Part shown: positions 5,280 to 45,230 of the stretch, piece after piece | Position numbering within the stretch: the first letter of the stretch is position 1 | How the letters are laid out: every line of letters begins with the position of its first letter | DNA from: Eledone cirrhosa | Taxonomy: Eukaryota | Length of the DNA: 64,000 nt | Direction: 5' to 3' | Assembly: GCA_964016885.1 (NCBI GenBank) | Contig: OZ024759.1 | Location: 6,758,001 to 6,822,000, forward strand | Program-made: the position numbers and the translations under genes | Notes under the pieces: generated by a model | What the model saw: the letters and a program-made list of their open reading frames with translations, nothing else | What the model was told of the DNA's origin: nothing | Database searches by the model: none

Positions 5280-5405
5280 GTAGGAGGTGAGTTTTATTGT
5301 AGTACAATAAAGCAATGCAGATATCGGATAAGTAGCACTCTACAGTTTGTAGGACTGGAGTATAAATAATATATAAGATCAAAAGATGGTTAAAAGAGTT
5401 CCATG

Positions 5406-5476
5406 TATTTTATTATGCGCATTTCAAAAACAAATATCATCATGCAATAACATTTGCGTTTTCGTCAGATAAAATA
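5406..5476 (-). ncRNA. Minimal type I hammerhead ribozyme in the P2 3' end
   Basis: Minus strand: TATTTTAT-CTGACGA-stem II-GAAA-TGCGCA-TA-ATAAAATA; 8-bp stem I, palindromic stem III. Confidence 0.85.
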
Positions 5477-6419
5477 GGGAGACATGATATGAAGGTTAAA
5501 ACACACTTGTGAATAGTGCAGTTTTAAATCAACATATGAAAAGTAGTTTTAGATTGATATGTGATATTGGGGAAAAACATTTTTTGAGGGGGTGGGGGTG
5601 GAAAGGATGAAAAAGAGGAGGAGATGAGAGTAAAAAGTGGAGGGGGAGGAGTATAATGAGGAAGGATGAGATAGGAGGAGAGATGGCTGATAGAGAGAGA
5701 GAGATAGCTTTTATAACTGAGAAAAATATATTGTTTTACATAGAGAGGTTGAAAAACCGTTGGAAGATAATATATAAATTAAAAGAATTTGAAAATTAAC
5801 GAAGAGAAAAATAATGTTAAGTTAAGGTTTGTATATTGAGGGGTTTAATAACATGTGCGATGAAAAGAAATTGTTAATATGTATTAAGAATAATATTTAA
5901 GGGTTTAATAATATGTGCGATGGAGAGAAATGGTTGATATGTATTATTAAAAAAATATAAAAAAATAGCAAAAGTAATGTAAGTAAGGATATATTGTGAA
6001 AGAAGTAGAAGATTGGATGTATAAGTTAGATGAGCATGAAAGGGAGAAAAAAATAATGAATTGAGGATGAATAATCTAACGTCAAAAAAATGTTTATGTT
6101 TACGAAGGATACATTGTGCTGTGTAATAATTGTTTCTACGTTAGGCACAATGATAATTGAGAAGTATCTAGGAAGAAAAGGTACAGATTAGGGGTTAGAA
6201 ATTAAAAGAAAAAGAAAAAAAGAAAAGAAAAAAGGAAAAAAGAAAGAAAGGGAAGTGATAAATAGGAGTGATATAGAATGAGTAACTAGTATTATATAAT
6301 GTATAATAAATAACATTGAAGTAAGGTAGAAAGATGGGTAGAAAGATGGGTTTTTAAAGAAATATATATGTATATATATATGTGTGCCTTTGAGAAAAGG
6401 ATTTTAAATTGATAAAGTA

Positions 6420-7066
6420 TTAGATATTAGCTGTATACTTTATGGAATGTTCTGTGGAATTTATGTGGAATTTATGCAAGCAGAGAGAAAACAAGTCAGT
6501 GCGTCTATTTATTATAGAATCTAAATTAGATATAATGGTAAATTTTTCACATAAACAGAGATTGCATGTCTTGGATAGAGAACTGTTCAAGTATAAAGAA
6601 GCAGAACAAACCTTTTTCCAAGAGATGTTATAGTTAATATTTTTGTCTTTCAAGGACCATATGAGTTCTGAGAGTGCCGTGTTGGTTCTTTAAAAGTTGG
6701 TATTTAAAAGACGAATGGTGATTATAAAGACGAGCTTTAAAGGAGGTGGAAGTGGAGCCATAATAGGAAAAGGAATTGGTGTCAGTTATAACTTTACATT
6801 CGTAGATTAAGTTTTTTTCAAGACAATGGTTGTTGAGAGGACATTTATTTTTAACAGGGCAATTGCAATTGCGATTAGAGAGATTAACAGAGTTATTAAC
6901 AAGTGACCTAGTGTTATCTATAGAAGGGATTGGATTGGAGAAGTTATTTACGATAGGAATAATAGTTTCTTGATTTAGAATGGGATTAAGAACATTTAGC
7001 GAAGTTGCGTTTGACATTGTATTTGGGTTTTCAGAAATTAGCCTAGAGTTTACAATGACGTCAACG
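6420..7066 (-). pseudogene. Frameshifted GIY-YIG endonuclease of PLE P2
   Basis: CNCPVKNKCPLNNHCLEKNLIYECKV...YYGSTSTSFKARLYNH, then after a frameshift near 6660 WKKV...CNLCLCEKFTI...INRRTDL..C.HK. Confidence 0.85.
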
Positions 7067-7277
7067 TGCAACGAAAGAACTTTGATAGACTATATATATG
7101 TGTTTGTGTCTATATTGTATCTGTATTTTTGACCGTTGGTCAGTCAATGGCAACATTGAGGACCGAATAAATTAGATTACCGATATAAAAGACACAGAAG
7201 CGAAAACCAACCAAACAGTGAGTGTGTTCTGTTATAAATTCTGGCAATATTACACAAATATGACCCTCCCCAAGTAT

Positions 7278-12431: not shown

Positions 12432-12620
12432 TAACGAAGGAAATGTGGTAAGGAACCAGGTGGACCATAACGCACCAAAGTACTCAATACTTGGGGTAGT
12501 AGAGTGGGTAATAGGAACCAGTAAGACCCCGACGGCTGAGCTCAAGCCGTTTCGACGGCTAATTCTGAATTAGCCGTCGAAACGGCTTGAGCTCAGCCGT
12601 CGGGGTCTTACTGGTTCCTA
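12432..12620 (-). mobile_element. Fold-back element of family H
   Basis: Near-perfect palindrome 12511-12620; GAAA-CGGCT-tgagctc-AGCCG-TC-GGGG on both strands. Confidence 0.8.
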
Positions 12621-12734: not shown

Positions 12735-12800
12735 TGTTTTATTATATATATTTCGAAGGTACTGCGCTGTTTTTTCAGTACGTCCTCGTCAGATAAAATA
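12735..12800 (-). ncRNA. Minimal type I hammerhead ribozyme in a (TA)n-flanked element (about 12677-12955)
   Basis: Minus strand: TATTTTAT-CTGACGA-GGAcGTACTG...CAGTACcTTC-GAAA-TATATA-TA-ATAAAACA; related copy at 32755-33475. Confidence 0.85.
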
Positions 12801-25311: not shown

Positions 25312-26712
25312 CAAACTGCTACCAGCAGCCTCAGATATTCAGGACGTATCGGAGGGTCCTTGCCGTTCCAAGTAAGCATGGAAGTATTTCAAAATAGAGG
25401 TGGGGGGGGGGCTGATGGTCTTTAGCCAGCCTTGGAAACTCTTCGAGATAGTACCCAGTGCTCCCATGACGATAGAGACAACTTTGATCTCATGGCATTT
25501 CCAAACCCTTTTCAGTTTCCACTTCAGGTTCTGGTACCGGTTAATTCTTCTCCTCTACTTTTCATGTACTCTTGTGTCAAAGGGGCAAGCTACATCTATA
25601 ATCAAACATGATCTTTTTTCCTTGTCAAAAACCACCAAGTCAGGCCTATTATATTCTAATTCTTTATCAGTTTGTATTCTGAAATAACTGTTTCTACTTT
25701 AGGCACAAGGCCAGCAATCACCCAGTGCATTACTGGTACTTTATTTTATCGACCCCGTAAGGATGAAAGGCAAAGTCAACCTCGGCGGGATTTGAACTCA
25801 GATCATAAAGGGACGTAACTATGCTGGAAAGCATGGCGTCCGACCCTCTACCGATACTGCCAATCCACCGCCCTAACATGGCGTCCGACCCTCTACCGAT
25901 ACTGCCAATCCACCACCCTAACATGGCGTCCGACCCTCTACCGATACTGCCAATCCACCACCCTAACATGGCGTCCGACCCTCTACCGATACTGCCAATC
26001 CACCACCCTAACATGGCGTCCGACCCTCTACCGATACTGCCAATCCACCGCCCTAACATGGCGTCCGACCCTCTACCGATACTGCCAATCCACCACCCTA
26101 ACATGGCGTCCGACCCTCTACCGATACTGCCAATCCACCGCCCTAACATGGCGTCCGACCCTCTACCGATACTGCCACTCCACCGCCCTAGCATGACGTC
26201 CGACCCTCTACCGATACTGCCAATCCACCACCCTAACATGGCGTCCGACCCTCTACCGATACTGCCACTCCACCGCCCTAGCATGGCGTCCGACCCTCTA
26301 CCGATACTGCCAATCCACCGCCCTAGCATGGCGTCCGACCCTCTACCGATACTGCCAATCCACCACCCTAACATGGCGTCCGACCCTCTACCGATACTGC
26401 CACTCCACCGCCCTAACATGGCGTCCGACCCTCTACCGATACTGCCAATCCACCGCCCTAGCATGGCGTCCGACCCTCTACCGATACTGCCAATCCACCG
26501 CCCTAGCATGGCGTCCGACCCTCTACCGATACTGCCAATCTGAAATAACACCTTCACCTGGTCGTTTTCCATCACCAATTCTAGCTTATGCTCATACCAC
26601 TCCTCAGCGAGGGGTAAATCATTCAATTTGTACAAATGCCTGTGGATCACTTTTCCTATAATATCATACCTCCATCCTTTATAATGAGTCTGGGTCAGGA
26701 GTTTACCCTCGG
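25312..26712 (-). mobile_element. Second, degenerate Dong-like 3' fragment interrupted by a multi-head SINE
   Basis: Similar to 23085-23620 (CAGCCTCAGATATTCAGGACGTATCGGAGGG; WYEH, MENDQVKVL). Confidence 0.8.
25689..26540 (-). mobile_element. tRNA SINE with about 16 tandem 45-bp heads
   Basis: One body/B-box; flanking direct repeat TCTGAAATAAC on both sides. Confidence 0.9.
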
Positions 26713-26880
26713 AGTTACGGCTCTTTACATTCTGAGTTCAAATCCTGTCGATGTTAGCTTTGCTGTTCATCCTTACAGGGTTGATAAAATAAAGTACCAG
26801 TAACGCACTGGGGTCGATTTAATCGAATCTCCCCTACCCCAAAATTGTTGGCCTTGTGCCTATACAAGAAACAATTATTA
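26712..26880 (+). mobile_element. 5'-truncated SINE of a longer subfamily
   Basis: B-box and body, with an extra segment GGGGTCGATTTAATCGAATCTCCCCTACCCCAAAATTG before the tail. Confidence 0.75.
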
Positions 26881-26897
26881 TTATACAATTATTAGTA

Positions 26898-28533
26898 TAG
26901 GGCGGTGGATTGGCAGTATCGGTAGAGGGTCGGACGCCATGCTAGGGCGGTGGATTGGCAGTATCGGTAGAGGGTCGGACGCCATGCTAGGGCGGTGGAT
27001 TGGCAGTATCGGTAGAGGGTCGGACGCCATGCTAGGGCGGTGGATTGGCAGTATCGGTAGAGGGTCGGACGCCATGCTAGGGCGGTGGATTGGCAGTATC
27101 GGTAGAGGGTCGGACGCCATGCTAGGGCGGTGGATTGGCAGTATCGGTAGAGGGTCGGACGCCATGCTAGGGTGGTGGATTGGCAGTATCGGTAGAGGGT
27201 CGGACGCCATGCTAGGGTGGTGGATTGGCAGTATCGGTAGAGGGTCGGACGCCATGCTAGGGTGGTGGATTGGCAGTATCGGTAGAGGGTCGGACGCCAT
27301 GCTAGGGTGGTGGATTGGCAGTATCGGTAGAGGGTCGGACGCCATGCTAGGGTGGTGGATTGGCAGTATCGGTAGAGGGTCGGACGCCATGCTAGGGTGG
27401 TGGATTGGCAGTATCGGTAGAGGGTCGGACGCCATGCTAGGGCGGTGGATTGGCAGTATCGGTAGAGGGTCGGACGCCATGTTAGGGCGGTGGATTGGCA
27501 GTATCGGTAGAGGGTCGGACGCCATGTTAGGGCGGTGGATTGGCAGTATCGGTAGAGGGTTGGACGCCATGTTAGGGTGGTGGATTGGCAGTATCGGTAG
27601 AGGGTTGGACGCCATGCTAGGGTGGTGGATTGGCAGTATCGGTAGAGGGTCGGACGCCATGTTAGGGCGGTGGATTGGCAGTATCGGTAGAGGGTCGGAC
27701 GCCATGTTAGGGCGGTGGATTGGCAGTATCGGTAGAGGGTCGGACGCCATGCTAGGGTGGTGGATTGGCAGTATCGGTAGAGGGTCGGACGCCATGCTAG
27801 GGTGGTGGATTGGCAGTATCGGTAGAGGGTCGGACGCCATGCTAGGGCGGTGGATTGGCAGTATCGGTAGAGGGTCGGACGCCATGTTAGGGCGGTGGAT
27901 TGGCAGTATCGGTAGAGGGTCGGACGCCATGTTAGGGCGGTGGATTGGCAGTATCGGTAGAGGGTTGGACGCCATGTTAGGGTGGTGGATTGGCAGTATC
28001 GGTAGAGGGTTGGACGCCATGCTAGGGTGGTGGATTGGCAGTATCGGTAGAGGGTCGGACGCCATGTTAGGGCGGTGGATTGGCAGTATCGGTAGAGGGT
28101 CGGACGCCATGTTAGGGCGGTGGATTGGCAGTATCGGTAGAGGGTCGGACGCCATGTTAGGGCGGTGGATTGGCAGTATCGGTAGAGGGTCGGACGCCAT
28201 GTTAGGGCGGTGGATTGGCAGTATCGGTAGAGGGTCGGACGCCATGTTAGGGCGGTGGATTGGCAGTATCGGTAGAGGGTCGGACGCCATGTTAGGGCGG
28301 TGGATTGGCAGTATCGGTAGAGGGTCGGACGCCATGTTAGGGCGGTGGATTGGCAGTATCGGTAGAGGGTCGGACGCCATGCTTTGCAGCAAAGAGTTAC
28401 GGCCCTTTATGGTCTGAGTTCAAATCCCGCCGAAATTAACTTTGCCTTTCATCCTTACGGGGGTTGATGAAATAAAATACCAGTAATGCACTGGGATAAT
28501 TGCTGGCCTTGTGCCTAAAGTAGAAATAATTAT
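26898..28533 (+). mobile_element. tRNA SINE with about 33 tandem 45-bp heads
   Basis: Unit TAGGGYGGTGGATTGGCAGTATCGGTAGAGGGTYGGACGCCATGY, then a single B-box body. Confidence 0.92.
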
Positions 28534-29483: not shown

Positions 29484-31589
29484 GTTTTGCGAGGTTTTTT
29501 ATATGAAATCGTGTGTCGAAACAAATATTGTTATACTTGGGGAAGGGTCATATTTGTGTAATAATATTGCCAGAATTAATAACAGAGGACACTCACTGTT
29601 TGGTTGGTTTTCGCTTCTGTGTCTTTTATATCGGTTAATTTAATTTATTCGGTCCTCAATGTTTATCATTGACTGACCAACGGTCAAAAATACAGATACA
29701 ATATAGACACAAACACATATATATAGTCTATCAAAGTTCTTTCGTTGCACATCTGCAACATCGTCAGTGGTGCTATTATGTTTCCTCCCGTTGTATTGTA
29801 TGCCTACGCCATCTTTATTTAGTCTGTTTATTTATTTGTTTATTTTTTGTCTTCTCTGCGCATGCGTTTTCGTGTGTGTATAGTGTTTTGTTTGATGTGT
29901 GTTCGTGTTTGGCTGACTGTGTATTGGTTATTGTATTCTATCTTAGTTTACTAGTGTGTGTTTATATGTGGTTCTTGTTATTGTGCTTGTGTGTGTATTT
30001 ATTTATTTATTTATACTTCTCTTACTTCTTGTAAGAACAAGAGAGTACTAACAAGTTTGATTTAGAACGTAGCACAATGGAAAGCATCCAGCAGATAGCT
30101 AATTCCATACACCAGAGTATAACTGTAGCTATCGACTACCCTTCCAAACACCCTAACAATAGATTACCTGTATTAGACACGGAACTCTGGATTAACACTA
30201 TAGACGAGAGACCCCAAATTCTCCACTCACACTATGCTAAACCCATGGCCTCCAAATACCTGATACTCAAAAACTCAGCAATGTGTGATGAAGAACGTGT
30301 CCCGCATGTGCGACCCAACAGAAATGGAAAGACACATCCAACACTTCATCAACCGCATGCAGTTCTCTGGCTACAACCAAAGAGATAGAATCAGAGAATA
30401 CAAAGGAGCCACGGAGAAGTATAAGACCCTCATAGAACTGGACATGAAAGGAATTTGCCCATTATATAGGAGCAAATCATGGAATAGCTTAGATAGGACT
30501 AAACATAAGATAGAGAAAGCCACCTCATGGTACGACAACCAGAGATACCAGAGTGTCATGTTTGTGGACGCTACCCCTGGAGGGAAATTAGCTAACCAGT
30601 GTAGAAAGACTCCGAGAAATACCCACTTAAAGATTAAGGTGGTAGAAAAGCCAAAAACCACCATAAAATCCCTGATCAGCAAAACCTACCTTTTTAAGAA
30701 AACCCACTGTACTAATAGGAAATGTATTATATGTAAAGTAAACCACCGGATAAACTGTAAAACTAGAAACGTAGTCTATAGCATAAGATGTACAGAGGGT
30801 ACTTGCAGAAACATGACAACAACATACATAGGCGAGACAGCTCGTAGCATAGGTGAAAGGATAGACCAACACTGGGGGGAACTAAAAGGAGGAAAAAACG
30901 ATTCAGTACTATACAAACTTGCCAGACAACAACATGACGGTAACATAGACAACATAGAAATTAGAATAATATCTAAACATAGAAATGACCCAGCAGATAG
31001 GCAAATCAGAGAGCCAGCGAAATAGAACTCAGAAGGCCAAGGCTAAACAGAAAAAATGAATGGAATAACAACAACACCCAAACAAACAACACTGACCTAA
31101 GGCAAGTATAAATAAATAAATAAATACATACACAAGCACAATAACAACAAACACATATAAACACACACTAGTAAACTAAGATAGAATACAATAACCAATA
31201 CACAGTCACCAAAACACAAACACACATCAAACAAAACACTATACACACACGCAAACGCATGCGCAGAGAAGACAAAAAATAAACAAATAAATAAATAAAT
31301 AAACAGACTAAATAAAGATGGCGTAGGCATACAATACAACGGGAGGAAACATAATAGCACCACTGACGGTGTTGCAGATGTGCAACGAAAGAACTTTGTT
31401 AGACTATATATATGTGTTTGTGTCTATATTGTATCTGTATTTTTGACCGTTGGTCAGTCAATGGTAACATTGAGGACCGAATAAATTAAATTAACTGATA
31501 TAAAAGACACAGAAGCGAAAACCAACCAAACAGTGAGTGTGTTCTGTTATTAATTCTGGCAATATTATTACACAAATATGACCCTTCCC
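29484..31589 (+). mobile_element. PLE family P1 copy, 5'-truncated, with inverted 5' pLTR (29484-30030) and 3' pLTR (31100-31589)
   Basis: Arms are reverse complements; hammerheads at 29730-29771 (-, intact CTGACGA) and 31359-31400 (+, CTGACGG); flanked by TA-rich microsatellites. Confidence 0.92.
30032..31110 (+). pseudogene. Frameshifted P1 RT C-terminus plus GIY-YIG
   Basis: NSIHQSITV..D...LPVLDTELW...HYAKPM, frameshift near 30285, then a near-copy of ORF 12-848 with a second frameshift near 31015. Confidence 0.88.
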
Positions 31590-35721: not shown

Positions 35722-35724
<3 letters not shown>

Positions 35725-35916
35725 CGAAGTAAATGTGGTAAGGAACCAGGTGGACCATAACGCACCAAAGTACTCAATACTTGGGGTAGTAGAGTGGGTA
35801 ATAGGAACCAGTAAGACCCCGACGGCTGAGCTCAAGCCGTTTCGACGGCTAATTCTGGACTCCAGAATTAGCCGTCGAAACGGCTTGAGCTCAGCCGTCG
35901 GGGTCTTACTGGTTCC

Positions 35917-35920
<4 letters not shown>
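35722..35920 (-). mobile_element. Fold-back element of family H
   Basis: Near-identical to 12432-12620 with a slightly longer centre. Confidence 0.8.
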
Positions 35921-35979
<59 letters not shown>

Positions 35980-36139
35980 AAAAGAAATAAGAATTCGCTC
36001 CAAGCATAGCTTTATACAATATGTATAGAAATTTCGTATTTCTAAAGAAACACGGTTTTAGGAAGCCGTAGGTATGTAAACACCGGGGGGGGGGGGGGCT
36101 ATCGCCCTCTGGTGATGTCCAGCAGAAGCAAGGGGAACA

Positions 36140-36183
36140 ACCGTCAATGCATTTCAGTCTTATCTGGCCTTCGTCAGGACGAT
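36140..36183 (-). ncRNA. Minimal type I hammerhead ribozyme (opposite arm)
   Basis: ATCGTC-CTGACGA-AG-gccagataaga-CT-GAAA-TGCA-TT-GACGGT. Confidence 0.75.
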
Positions 36184-36220
36184 CTTCAAGTCCAGCAGTA
36201 GCAGGCGATGGGTGGGAGGG

Positions 36221-36264
36221 ATCGTCCTGACGAAGGCCAGTTAAACCTGAAATGCATAGACGGT
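36221..36264 (+). ncRNA. Minimal type I hammerhead ribozyme
   Basis: ATCGTC-CTGACGA-AGG-ccagttaaa-CCT-GAAA-TGCA-TA-GACGGT. Confidence 0.88.
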
Positions 36265-36448
36265 TGTCCCCCTTGCTTCTGCTGGACATCACAAGAGGGC
36301 GTTAGCCCCCCCCCCCCGCCCCGGTGTTTACATACCTACGGCTTCCTAAAACCGTGTTTCTTTAGAAATACAAAATTTCTATACATATTGTATAAAGCTA
36401 TGCTTGGAGCGAATTCTTATTTCTTTTCTTATATATATATATATATTC

Positions 36449-36530
<82 letters not shown>

Positions 36531-36591
36531 GTACATATATATATGTATATGTACGTATATATATATATATATATGTACGTATATATATATA

Positions 36592-37174: not shown

Positions 37175-37221
<47 letters not shown>

Positions 37222-37225
<4 letters not shown>

Positions 37226-37342
37226 AACCAGTAAGACCCCGACAGCTGAGCTCAAGCCGTTTCGACGGCTTACTGGTTCCTATTACTCATTCTACTACCT
37301 CAAGTATTGAGTACTTTGGTGCGTTATGGTCCACCTGGTTCC
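37222..37342 (+). mobile_element. Family H element with an inverted short arm and a deleted centre
   Basis: TAGGAACCAGTAAG...CGACGG joined to CTTACTGGTTCCTATTAC...CCTTCGTTA. Confidence 0.75.
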
Positions 37343-37391: not shown

Positions 37392-37800
37392 ATAATTGTT
37401 TCTACTTTAGGCACAAGGCCAGCAATTACCCAGTACATTACTGGTACTTTATTTTATCGACCCCGTAAGGATGAAAGGAAAAGTTAACCTCGGCGGGTTT
37501 TGAACTCAGACCATAAAGGGCCGTAACTCTTTGCTGCAAAGCATGGCGTCCAACCCTCTACCGATACTGCCAATACACCGCCCTAACATGGCGTCCAACC
37601 CTCTACCGATACTGCCAATACACCGCCCTAACATGGCGTCCAACCCTCTACCGATACTGCCAATACACCGCCCTAACATGGCGTCCAACCCTCTACCGAT
37701 ACTGCCAATACACCGCCCTAACATGGCGTCCAACCCTCTACCGATACTGCCAATACACCGCCCTAACATGGCGTCCGACCCTCTGCCGATACTGTCAATC
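37392..37800 (-). mobile_element. tRNA SINE with about 6 tandem heads
   Basis: 45-bp units with locus-specific variants (TGTATTGG, GGGTTGG). Confidence 0.9.
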
Positions 37801-38061
37801 CAAGGAGTTGACGGACCCAGCATATTTATCAATGCCAATAGGTAATGTAGGATACATTCCCAGAGTATTCACATAGTTATTCGCTTCAATACAATGTGTG
37901 TGTATGTGTGCGTGCGTGTGTGTGTGTGCGGGCGTGCAAAGGTGAATAATGTAGGCATTCACCGTAAAATTGGTGGTGATGGTGGTAGGTAAAGGAAAGA
38001 ATAGGAGCCGATCAAATCGGACCACGGAGACAATGTTTCCATTGGTCTTCACTTCAGAAAT

Positions 38062-42345: not shown

Positions 42346-45230
42346 TTTTCTCTTTCTCTTAATTTCGAGTATATTTTTTTGACCGGCCATCTTCCTGGTG
42401 GCAAGGTTGTAAAAGAAAAGAAATTGTCATCCCTTGAATCGCAAGAATGTTTTGCAAATTTTGAAGGTGCCAGCTATCGCAGCCATTTGTAGACTATGAA
42501 TTAGGGAGCTGCGCTTTTTGTCCGCAAATCCAAGTTCAGTCATACTTTGGTCCAAGCGGGTTGGTATATAACCCGTAGCACCAATAATGATGGGTATGAA
42601 GCTAAAGGTGTATCTTGGATACTGGATTTGTAAACTCCTCATCAATGGTCCGTAGATGTCCTCCTTCTCCTGTATTTTTCTGACAACGTTTACATCAAGT
42701 GGGCAGCTGATCTCCACAACAGAACACGTTTCCAATGTGTGGTCCCAAACTACAATATCAGGCCGGTTGTGCTTTAATTTGGTGGCAGTTTTTATTTTCA
42801 GGTTCCACCAGTATTCCTTAGTGCCATCTGTCTCAATATATTCTTCCTCGTTTGTTGTTAATTTTGTTTTCCGAAGTGCGTTCCAGATGGTTCTAGCTAT
42901 CCCATCGTGTCTCATGGGGAGGTAGTAGCGAGATGACATTCTTTCGCAGCTGGCAACAATGTGGCTTACGTCCTCGATCTTTGTTTTACATAGCCTACAT
43001 TTATTGTCAGCTGCTGGCCCTCCTCTTTTGTGCAGCAGATATTTGGTAGGGAGTTCTTGTTCCTGTATTGCATAGAGATATCCCTCAAGGTGTGATGTCA
43101 TAAACTTGTCGGAACTCCATGCTAGGCTTTTTGAGTGGTTTATCCCCTCTATGGTCTGTGTTTTACGCCTCAAGTATCCATGCACAACTTTTTCTGTAAA
43201 TTGGTCAATTTTTTTATCTTGTTTGAACATTGAATAGGATCTTCCGATTTCTCTGGGTGAGAGATTTATATCAGGCTTTATTCCATATCTCTCCTCCAGA
43301 TCAGTCGCTATTTTAATGATATTTCTTTTTTCATGGTCATAAACCTGGGCAAGATGGTTGCCAACCTTTTTCCTCTGTTGAAGGTGTTGCTTCAGTGTTA
43401 CTATCCGGGTCTCATATGTTGTTAATATTGATTTTAGACCCCGGCCACCTTCCTTGCGTGAGAAGTATAGCCTATCCACAAAGTTCCCAGTAACACTGAG
43501 AAGTTTTCGAGTTCTAACATCCATCTCACTTAGTTCTTGCAATGACCAGTTCAGTAGGCCAAATGTTGGCGTTAGAATTGGCACAGTATAAGTATTGTGG
43601 GCAATGTATTTGTTGTATGCTGACAGTTCTGATGACCATATTTTCTTTACTCTTCTGAGGTATTCAGTTCTGGTTCTCTCCTTATTTATGGGTCCATCAT
43701 ATCTGACATTCTCATCCTGTCCAAGATATCTGTAGTTGTCACCTGACTGCAGAGGTTGTATTGTCAGGCCGTTCATCTCTAGATTTCTAGAGGAGGGCAC
43801 AGCTCTTCCACGTTTTACTGCCAAATATGCACACTTGGACTCACCAAATTTCATTTTGATGTCGGTTGAAAATTGTGTAATGAGGTTCAATTGTTTCTTG
43901 ATGTCATTGATATTTGGCCCATACAACTTCAGGTCATCAACAAAGAAAAGATGGGAGATACTTCTGGGCCCACTTCTTTGTCCACCTTGTTTCCTGAGTA
44001 GGTAAGATAGTGGATTCAGTGAGAGAACGAAGAGTAGCACTGACAAGCTATCACCCTGAAAGATGCCCTTCTGGTAATGTATCTTATCAGTCTTAACCTG
44101 CTCCTTCTCACCTCTAAGGATCAAACTGGTGTACCAGTTCTTGGTCAGGCGTTCAACAGCAGCTACCAATGGTTGTGGGACTTTAGCTAACTGTAAAGCC
44201 TTAACAATCCACCCATGAGGTACACTATCAAATGCTTTTTGATAGTCCAGCCACACGACAGTCATGTTTCTGCGATTCTTTGTTGTTTTTTCCTGAATCA
44301 TTTTGTTAGTTAGAAGGTGATCTATGCAACCCCACACCTCCCTCTTTCCACCAGCTTGCTCAGGTGTTATGATGTTGTTGGTATATATAATTTATACATG
44401 ATGTTTTGGCAGGCAATTGGGCGGTAATTTTTAGCAAGGGTGGTTTGGCTATTTTGGGGAATGAGGAGAGTAGAGGCAGTTGATAACCATCTGGGCAGTT
44501 CTTGTGTGCCCTTAATGGTTTCTGTAAACAGCCGTATGAGATCTTGCCGATAGAAAGTGAAATTCTTCAACCAGTATCCTGTAATGAGGTCTGGGCCTGG
44601 CGATTTCCTATTCGACATTTTCTGTAGAGCTGTTTCCAGTATTGACCCATCTATGTCATATTGTTTTGTCTGGACATGTTGGCAGTAGTCTTGTTCCAGT
44701 TCTTTTAGCCAATTAGCTTGTCTGTTGAATCCGTCATCCGTTTCCCATACAGATCTCCAGTAGCTCTCAACCTGTTCTTTTGAAGGGGTGTCATTTACAG
44801 AGATTGAGCTTTTGCCACCGAAGCTGCGATAAACTGATTTAGGATCTCTGGTAAACAATCTATTTAGCACTTGTCGTTTATGTGCTGTTGACTTATATTT
44901 TAGTCTTTCTGTTGTAGCTGTGAGTTGTTGTTTCAACTGGTGTAATTTGGAGTTCAAAGTTTTAAATTTTGTATCTCCAAATCGTCTCTCTAACTTTTTC
45001 TTTAGGTCTTCCTGGTGTCGTGTGAAGTTGCTCTCTATGTTGCATTTCATAACGACTGCGATGTGTGAGATACAACATTTTGTATCAGGGACAAAATTTT
45101 GGATTTTAAATTTCGCATCCACGCTGGTTCAGGCTTTCTGTTTGTATCTTGATTGCGTGGTTTTAGATGTGTGTTATATGATAGCAATGTGACAGCTGAA
45201 ACATATAACAAAACATTAAGCGTTTCTTTT
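42346..45230 (-). mobile_element. R4-like RLE LINE family A, about 2.9 kb, flanked by (ATGT)n
   Basis: SPGPDLI..YWLK, NYRPIAC, WLDYQKAFDSVPH, GIFQGDSLS, HLFFVDDLKLY, CRLC..HIVASC, RHD, RPDIVV..EISCP. Confidence 0.95.
42427..44337 (-). CDS. Reverse transcriptase, CCHC and restriction-like endonuclease (open 636-aa segment; frameshift to upstream segment 44367-45122)
   Basis: RT and RLE motifs listed for the element. Confidence 0.85.
   Translation of the reverse strand: MWGCIDHLLTNKMIQEKTTKNRRNMTVVWLDYQKAFDSVPHGWIVKALQLAKVPQPLVAAVERLTKNWYTSLILRGEKEQVKTDKIHYQKGIFQGDSLSVLLFVLSLNPLSYLLRKQGGQRSGPRSISHLFFVDDLKLYGPNINDIKKQLNLITQFSTDIKMKFGESKCAYLAVKRGRAVPSSRNLEMNGLTIQPLQSGDNYRYLGQDENVRYDGPINKERTRTEYLRRVKKIWSSELSAYNKYIAHNTYTVPILTPTFGLLNWSLQELSEMDVRTRKLLSVTGNFVDRLYFSRKEGGRGLKSILTTYETRIVTLKQHLQQRKKVGNHLAQVYDHEKRNIIKIATDLEERYGIKPDINLSPREIGRSYSMFKQDKKIDQFTEKVVHGYLRRKTQTIEGINHSKSLAWSSDKFMTSHLEGYLYAIQEQELPTKYLLHKRGGPAADNKCRLCKTKIEDVSHIVASCERMSSRYYLPMRHDGIARTIWNALRKTKLTTNEEEYIETDGTKEYWWNLKIKTATKLKHNRPDIVVWDHTLETCSVVEISCPLDVNVVRKIQEKEDIYGPLMRSLQIQYPRYTFSFIPIIIGATGYIPTRLDQSMTELGFADKKRSSLIHSLQMAAIAGTFKICKTFLRFKG

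Follow-up and report, generated by a model that had tools for sequence, protein, structure and literature searches.

How a near-symmetrical fold-back with a hammerhead motif in each arm arose at positions 35976–36431 of the window, the 64,000 nucleotide stretch of DNA analysed here, and what would become of its transcripts, are the questions raised by this locus. The original prediction was of inverted arms of about 210 bp around a 33 bp spacer, with (TA)n on both sides and no ORF. The arms, the flanks and the absence of an ORF are all borne out. Alignment of 36220–36431 with the reverse complement of 35976–36186 gives 201 identities, 8 mismatches and 5 gap positions, an arm identity of 201/209. 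The hairpin of the element has a predicted energy of -404 kcal/mol (z = -43), and 0 of 100 shuffled sequences fold equally well. Stops occur in all six frames, leaving no ORF across the element, and a tRNA search over the 64 kb window found none. The sequence on the left is a (TA)n tract (35920..35977) and that on the right is a (TA)n-rich tract (36430..36590), both presumed to be the target. These tracts mask any TA duplication and make the target-site duplication unreadable.

A search of the 3.0 Gb genome with the element returned 3370 candidates, of which the best 40 were scored. The matches recur at steps of 300–400 bp, and mapping of the loci gives a tandem unit of 323 nt, in which the hammerhead occupies unit positions 125–170, with a predicted cut after 163. 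In a blastn map of the window's copy (L001), the left arm (35978..36184, minus strand) is unit 125–323, its 5' truncation falling on the first base of hammerhead stem I and its 3' end pointing outward into (TA)n. The right arm (36183..36429, plus strand) is unit ~92–323, also 5'-truncated, and the two arms overlap by 2 nt at the head-to-head junction. The sequence of the predicted spacer is present (36185..36219, plus strand), but the unit map places it at unit about 92–124 of the right arm only; rather than a separate part, it is the extra 5' portion of that arm's repeat unit. In many genomic copies the match to the query starts at position 208, which is within this apparent spacer. Each arm also has a Penelope-type tail, unit 283–323, between the two fixed 3' end sites of the family, at 36389..36429 (plus strand) in the right arm and at 35978..36018 (minus strand) in the left. 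Judged from the unit map, the element is two 5'-truncated pieces of a 323 nt tandem repeat, placed head to head, and is not a unit element. The window's copy holds two partial units only.

A motif scan of the whole window places one type I hammerhead in each arm, both reading outward and both carrying CUGACGA, GAAA, UGCA and UH. The right hammerhead (36220–36265, plus strand) has a predicted cut after 36258, at AUA, and a stem II of 3 pairs, having lost the loop-closing pair of the 4 that are typical of the family. The left hammerhead (36139–36184, minus strand) has a predicted cut after 36146, where the triplet is AUU instead of AUA, and an internal mismatch in stem II. The three-helix core (CUGANGA, GAAA, NUH) is present in both arms, with a 7 bp helix I, a 4 bp helix II and a 2 bp palindromic helix III. 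The core motifs of the 'complete minimal hammerhead' claimed for each arm are therefore there; the motif is not complete, with stem II damaged in both arms, nor minimal, being of the canonical type I form. The architecture is the usual metazoan type I form and not the helix-III-less 'min-HHR', as these are described in the available text of PMC4209133. An Rfam search of 36080–36330 with E up to 10 gave 8 matches, none of them to a ribozyme family, and no hammerhead was among the 150 of 272 matches listed for the whole window. The Rfam matches are spurious miRNA-type hairpins that fall below the gathering scores. Further hammerhead motifs, belonging to other families, are found in the window at 12792 and at about 32050, both on the minus strand.

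The hammerheads of Penelope-like elements have a type I core and a short palindromic helix III associated with activity as dimers, and those with such a helix III are reported to need a second ribozyme (Cervera and de la Pena 2014, PMC4209133, in the sections available). The window's hammerheads share both the core and the short palindromic helix. In Schistosoma, the same source describes such motif pairs 100–700 bp apart on opposite strands. The window's two cores differ from those pairs in being ~50 bp apart, and their helices of 7, 4 and 2 bp are what that paper's available text calls the 'canonical' metazoan form. A transcript of either strand of the element would hold just one hammerhead, and by analogy the hammerheads of this copy are likely to need a dimer partner.

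The family to which the arms belong is large. The exact core pattern has 860 matches genome-wide (434 on the plus and 426 on the minus strand) and the tail motif has 1459, with 0 for the reversed control in each case; these figures are lower bounds on motif copies and not counts of insertions. Two overlapping samples were taken. Sample 1 consists of the first 100 core matches on contig C1, in position order, which resolve into 74 loci and 75 insertions; arms spanning the ribozyme are over-represented in it. Left out of it were 4 loci repeating an insertion, 2 matches of a single insertion (L045), and 6 of 7 matches spaced ~60–100 kb apart at C1:143.3–143.8 Mb. The seven core matches of this last region (G000:C1:143348607-143796119) are identical and probably represent one insertion within a large tandem duplication. 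Sample 2 consists of the first 100 tail matches, giving 82 loci (56 new and 26 matched by eye) and 84 insertions. The samples have 25 loci in common.

Head-to-head insertions with their 3' ends outward make up 48 of the insertions in sample 1, alongside 25 in a single orientation and 2 that are complex. In sample 2 the corresponding numbers are 50, 33 and 1. All of the head-to-head centres are distinct (48/48 and 50/50 in the overlapping samples). Collecting copies genome-wide had been proposed as a check, with variable centres implying independent 5' inversions, and this is the outcome. The junctions of the 48 in sample 1 have an overlap of 1–10 nt in 20 cases, are blunt in 7, have a gap of 1–10 nt in 11 and are larger in the other 10. 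Of the 96 arms, 33 are longer than one unit, the longest being 743 nt, and in 47 of the 48 arm pairs the two arms overlap in unit coordinates. Together these suggest a template that is either longer than the unit or circular. A dinucleotide microsatellite is found at one or both ends of 47/48 head-to-head insertions (both sides in 25, one side in 22, neither in 1), these being raw counts in a genome that is itself microsatellite-rich.

The outer 3' ends fall mainly at two sites. Of the 121 ends in sample 1, 51 are at a short site (unit 275–299, most near 282), 46 are at a long site (unit 313–321) and 24 are elsewhere; the spacing between the sites is 39 nt. When the two ends of each head-to-head insertion are considered as a pair, sample 1 has 26 long and short, 1 long and long, 2 short and short, and 19 in which one end or both lie elsewhere. 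Sample 2 has 32, 1, 2 and 15 respectively, the one long and long insertion being the same as in sample 1. The long and short combination thus accounts for 26/29 and 32/35 of the insertions with both ends at a site, where about half would be expected if the ends were independent (p = 7e-6 and 2e-7, in overlapping samples). No accumulation of 5' ends is seen at the hammerhead cut site, with 2/96 against 2.7 expected in sample 1 and 1/100 in sample 2. The DNA therefore gives no sign that the ribozyme ever cut the template. Some loci consist only of the tail (unit 280–321), and in these (L245, L280, L283) unit 280 is adjoined by another repeat, of the same kind each time, which suggests that insertions favour the AT-rich hairpin at the short end.

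Penelope-like insertions are described as having partial tandems, an inverted 5'-truncated copy, a 30–40 bp tail on one end and a bias towards (TA)n or microsatellite targets (Craig et al. 2021, PMC8557442; Arkhipova et al. 2013, PMC3846280; both as far as their available text extends). The family has the same footprint: a truncated inverted copy placed head to head, a variable junction, a 39 nt tail and microsatellite targets, together with the partial tandems, as in the endonuclease-bearing Penelope-like insertions of those accounts. It is unlike the insertions described there in having no ORF, the whole element being the 323 nt unit, and the window's copy is tailed at both ends. In vitro, the purified Penelope-type protein of Anolis Poseidon cuts and extends both strands of AT-rich targets; two internal RNA start sites bound the tail, and uncleaved RNA is the main template (PMC11167929). 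The family resembles Poseidon in a tail bounded by two start sites, and arms that run through the cut site fit an uncleaved template. For Poseidon no difference in start site was seen between the strands, whereas the two ends of insertions in this family nearly always use different sites.

The 323 nt family can also be compared with the metazoan non-LTR retrozymes, which are non-coding tandem units of 170–400 nt, each with a type I hammerhead, for which Penelope-like elements have been proposed as the mobiliser (Cervera and de la Pena 2020, PMC7229834; Li, Clavereau and Pollet 2026, bioRxiv 10.64898/2026.07.22.740005; in the text available). The arms reveal tandem non-coding units with a type I hammerhead, at a period of 323 nt within the range of about 170–400 nt and in arms of up to 743 nt. 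A natural unit folds well as a circle, at -96.6 kcal/mol (z = -4.3 against 60 shuffles). Retrozymes of this class are further expected to accumulate as small circular RNAs. The two-armed insertions and the tails set the family apart from the retrozymes as described in those texts, and no parent pLTR was found among the two coding families examined. The layout is one already known for Penelope-like elements, found here on a non-LTR retrozyme, and the sequence-level features of the element fit those of a non-LTR retrozyme inserted with a Penelope footprint.

It is very probable that a Penelope-like element supplied the reverse transcriptase-endonuclease that placed the head-to-head, 5'-truncated retrozyme pieces in a TA microsatellite. 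The enzyme would cut both strands of AT-rich DNA, after which both 3' ends would be extended, with synthesis starting at fixed sites within a template RNA that is multimeric or circular. Each of the two cDNAs would stop at an arbitrary point, with the truncated ends being joined over a few bases of microhomology. In the window's copy both arms would have begun at the outer start site, either from one template or through one arm being copied from the other, and the copy would since have drifted to give the 8 differences between its arms.

The symmetry of the window's copy, with its identical ends and TA flanks, is what would be expected of a MITE, a non-autonomous DNA transposon with long TIRs, TA duplications and a hammerhead-like motif present by chance. 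This origin is extremely improbable given the distinct centres of every head-to-head copy in both samples, the unequal ends of most copies, the 25/75 insertions in a single orientation, the tandem units and the covariation of stem II. None of the best 40 of 3370 candidates for the whole element repeats the 125/92 junction at the centre of the window's copy. For the family, a MITE is refuted by the copies not sharing both terminal repeats and a fixed internal sequence. That the element is retro-derived and not a MITE, as originally proposed, is supported by the variable centres and by the single-orientation and tandem copies. Classical LINE twin priming, in which a linear RNA is primed at its 3' end and once internally so that the arms are adjacent, non-overlapping parts, is another retrotransposition route to consider. 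Head-to-head geometry with microhomology at the junction is the expected product of twin priming, and LINE-like RT pieces are present in the window (Pfam RVT_1 at 42427–44391). The register expected of twin priming is found in 3/48 insertions, against 3.3 by chance, and the arms that should be separate overlap in unit coordinates in all but one of the 48 pairs. Both outer ends lie at fixed internal sites without poly(A). Twin priming is highly improbable here, being largely refuted by a register at chance level and by the overlap of the arms.

Insertion by a Penelope-like enzyme leaves two points to be explained: the pairing of unlike ends in the family and the like ends of the window's copy. 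Based on the 26/29 and 32/35 insertions with long and short ends, where about half were expected, a tentative reading, somewhat short of probable, is that priming is two-ended and asymmetric. At a TA break, an enzyme dimer would prime each strand on a single retrozyme RNA, either multimeric or circular, with one subunit at the outer and the other at the inner start site, and rare symmetrical copies would come about by fold-back. The rule in the family, that only one of the two ends has a tail, does not hold for the window's copy. Each of its arms is tailed, and both stop at the same base, a combination otherwise seen in 1/48 insertions of sample 1 and 1/50 of sample 2, which are the same insertion. 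Its arms are 95.7% identical over 186 columns, and at most 93% identical to any other copy then compared. They share 11/11 non-consensus alleles, of which no other of 274 segments has more than 6. Two alleles in the tail are nearly private to them: 308T is found in 2/214 segments, both of them here, and 301G in 4/214.

These features could be accounted for with the same family and the same enzyme if the symmetry arose by fold-back, one cDNA looping at unit ~92, priming on itself at unit 125 and copying its own sequence as far as the end, or by later conversion of one arm within the palindrome. Such self-priming has been proposed for junctions of this kind (PMC3846280, available text). This is a variant of the Penelope-like insertion set out above and does not exclude it. 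The arms ending at the same base and sharing the near-private 308T and 301G are consistent with fold-back, as is the location of 7/8 of the arm differences in the inner half (p = 0.07). The only other insertion with two long ends (L002) likewise has identical ends and a short loop (unit 99–123). However, these are two cases, one of which was chosen for its symmetry, and the 2 nt of microhomology fits the end-joining of two cDNAs equally well. Rare alleles are common to opposed arms in 48/1003 comparisons, against 306/40090 between random insertions, the pairs not being independent. At least one such allele is found in 32/83 insertions; in the majority of these the ends are unequal and the 5' starts far apart, an arrangement that could not result from fold-back. 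A single template for both arms would explain the rare alleles that opposed arms have in common. Fold-back is therefore possible for the window's copy, but rather doubtful.

The transcripts of the element were predicted to be divided between self-cleavage and the formation of dsRNA. Such a competition is not borne out in the folding model, in which forcing hammerhead stems I and II to form costs 60.8 and 62.6 kcal/mol relative to the hairpin, and the hairpin pairs first. A read-through transcript yields the antisense arm before the hammerhead, which in the model is already paired once it is complete, and a transcript that ends right after the hammerhead is already a hairpin. Stem I would be free to form only in a transcript starting inside the junction. 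The hammerheads of this copy are predicted not to cut. The window's copy is most likely a dead insertion, because read-through RNA would fold into a hairpin of ~200 bp and the hammerheads are predicted not to cleave it.

A hairpin of ~200 bp in RNA is a substrate for ADAR and Dicer. Since read-through of either strand is predicted to give such a hairpin, the locus could have been co-opted, with a transcript switched between self-cleavage and a dsRNA substrate for one of these enzymes. This is very unlikely, given the advantage of about 60 kcal/mol and earlier formation of the hairpin in the model, and the damage to stem II in both hammerheads. About two thirds of the sampled family insertions are also fold-backs, so the locus is not special. 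By eye, the ORFs of at least 150 aa in the window, a length that does not cover short exons, are simple-repeat frames or pieces of retroelements. There are no A-to-I scars in the genomic copies, with A>G at 175/15020 and T>C at 153/14629 on the RNA strand (p = 0.35), and 0 of the 8 arm differences is a change from consensus A to G private to one arm. The suggestion that the element is an ADAR or siRNA substrate thus finds no support in either comparison.

Within the family, retention of the ribozyme is seen when the subfamilies are compared. An older sister subfamily (L207, L210–L238; 1598 candidates, best 40 scored) was traced from a loose end among contigs of one study, in which four sequencing runs of unrecorded kind were compared with the element and one with a unit. 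Its stem II differs, being G-C-based, and its cut triplet is AUC. In a set of 96 sequences (73 distinct), 3/4 stem II pairs and 1/7 stem I pairs change on both sides, so the helices of the type I hammerhead covary, on few independent events. Pairing is retained in 90.9% of cells, against 86.6% in shuffles, although the 4 doubly changed pairs are not above the 5.5 of the shuffles, the events being few and mainly between the two subfamilies. Because stem II pairing is retained through these double changes, it is likely, on this sequence comparison, that the hammerhead fold was preserved during the family's mobile period. Selection on the ribozyme among genomic copies was considered and rejected. 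The mismatch of 2.3% against 5.1% came from loci chosen by similarity, the first 80 nt of the unit are equally low, and there is no per-column effect in the sample picked by the tail. In that sample the core is no better conserved than the rest, with a median column mismatch of 5.6% against 4.3% (p = 0.67) and a pooled mismatch of 5.1% against 6.9%. Selection on the ribozyme is therefore visible only between subfamilies.

Candidates for the mobilising enzyme are abundant in the same genome. Searches with two endonuclease pieces gave 44084 and 30905 candidates, with the best 150 scored for each, and reveal ORF-bearing elements with RT-like and GIY-YIG-like motifs. From motifs read by eye, we take these ORFs to be those of Penelope-like elements; sequence searches of Pfam, NCBIfam and PDB with them gave no significant match. 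The ORF-bearing elements form the same head-to-head pairs, with identities of 99.5% (L242), 95.7% (L243) and 98.5% (L244), and one of the coding families carries a hammerhead itself, with alternative 3' ends located in TA. The sequence of the unit has no match in the two coding families examined (60 loci, and 6 longer loci), so no autonomous element sharing it was found among them, and there is no consistent link to an ORF among 234 loci of the 323 nt family. One insertion is a hybrid (L273:1209-2432, at G000:C1:105893027-105896046), with both outer ends in TA. One side consists of a retrozyme arm with the short end; on the other, unit 148–200 runs directly, with no intervening bases, into sequence of a coding Penelope-like family, namely its endonuclease and 3' end. 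The sequence of this hybrid fits a template switch and a later insertion accompanied by a deletion equally well; a template switch, if true, would name the mobiliser.

Penelope-like elements are also present in the window itself. One, at 5280–7130 on the minus strand, is 5'-truncated and has an endonuclease-like frame at 6634–7089, its own hammerhead at 5468 and its 3' end in (TA)n, with a near-identical copy at G000:C20:3165339. At 30264–31025, on the plus strand, is the endonuclease end of a second, young Penelope-like family that has many long open frames genome-wide (1217 aa in L239).

As a single locus the element matters little, being one drifting copy among many. The family as a whole adds evidence from the insertion footprint, in the tail, the two start sites and the head-to-head arms, to the proposal that Penelope-like enzymes move animal retrozymes. 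The strong pairing of long and short ends is a prediction that can be tested in the published in vitro system. For annotation, caution is warranted, as symmetrical copies of a retrozyme resemble MITEs. The available main text of an octopus repeat annotation (PMC13282606) does not contain 'ribozyme' or 'retrozyme', and no published account of the 323 nt family or of the paired use of ends was found in the literature, supplements apart.

Other repeats of the window adjoin or resemble the element. A second, unrelated fold-back family is present at 35724–35920, directly adjoining the element, and at 12514–12618 and 37221–37285, with 5 matches to a 20 nt motif where 0 are expected. Its arms, which end in TA, are of unequal length, and no hammerhead is seen in these pieces. 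Arrays of a 45 bp unit are found at 25800–28420 and 37497–37847, inside copies of a short interspersed repeat.
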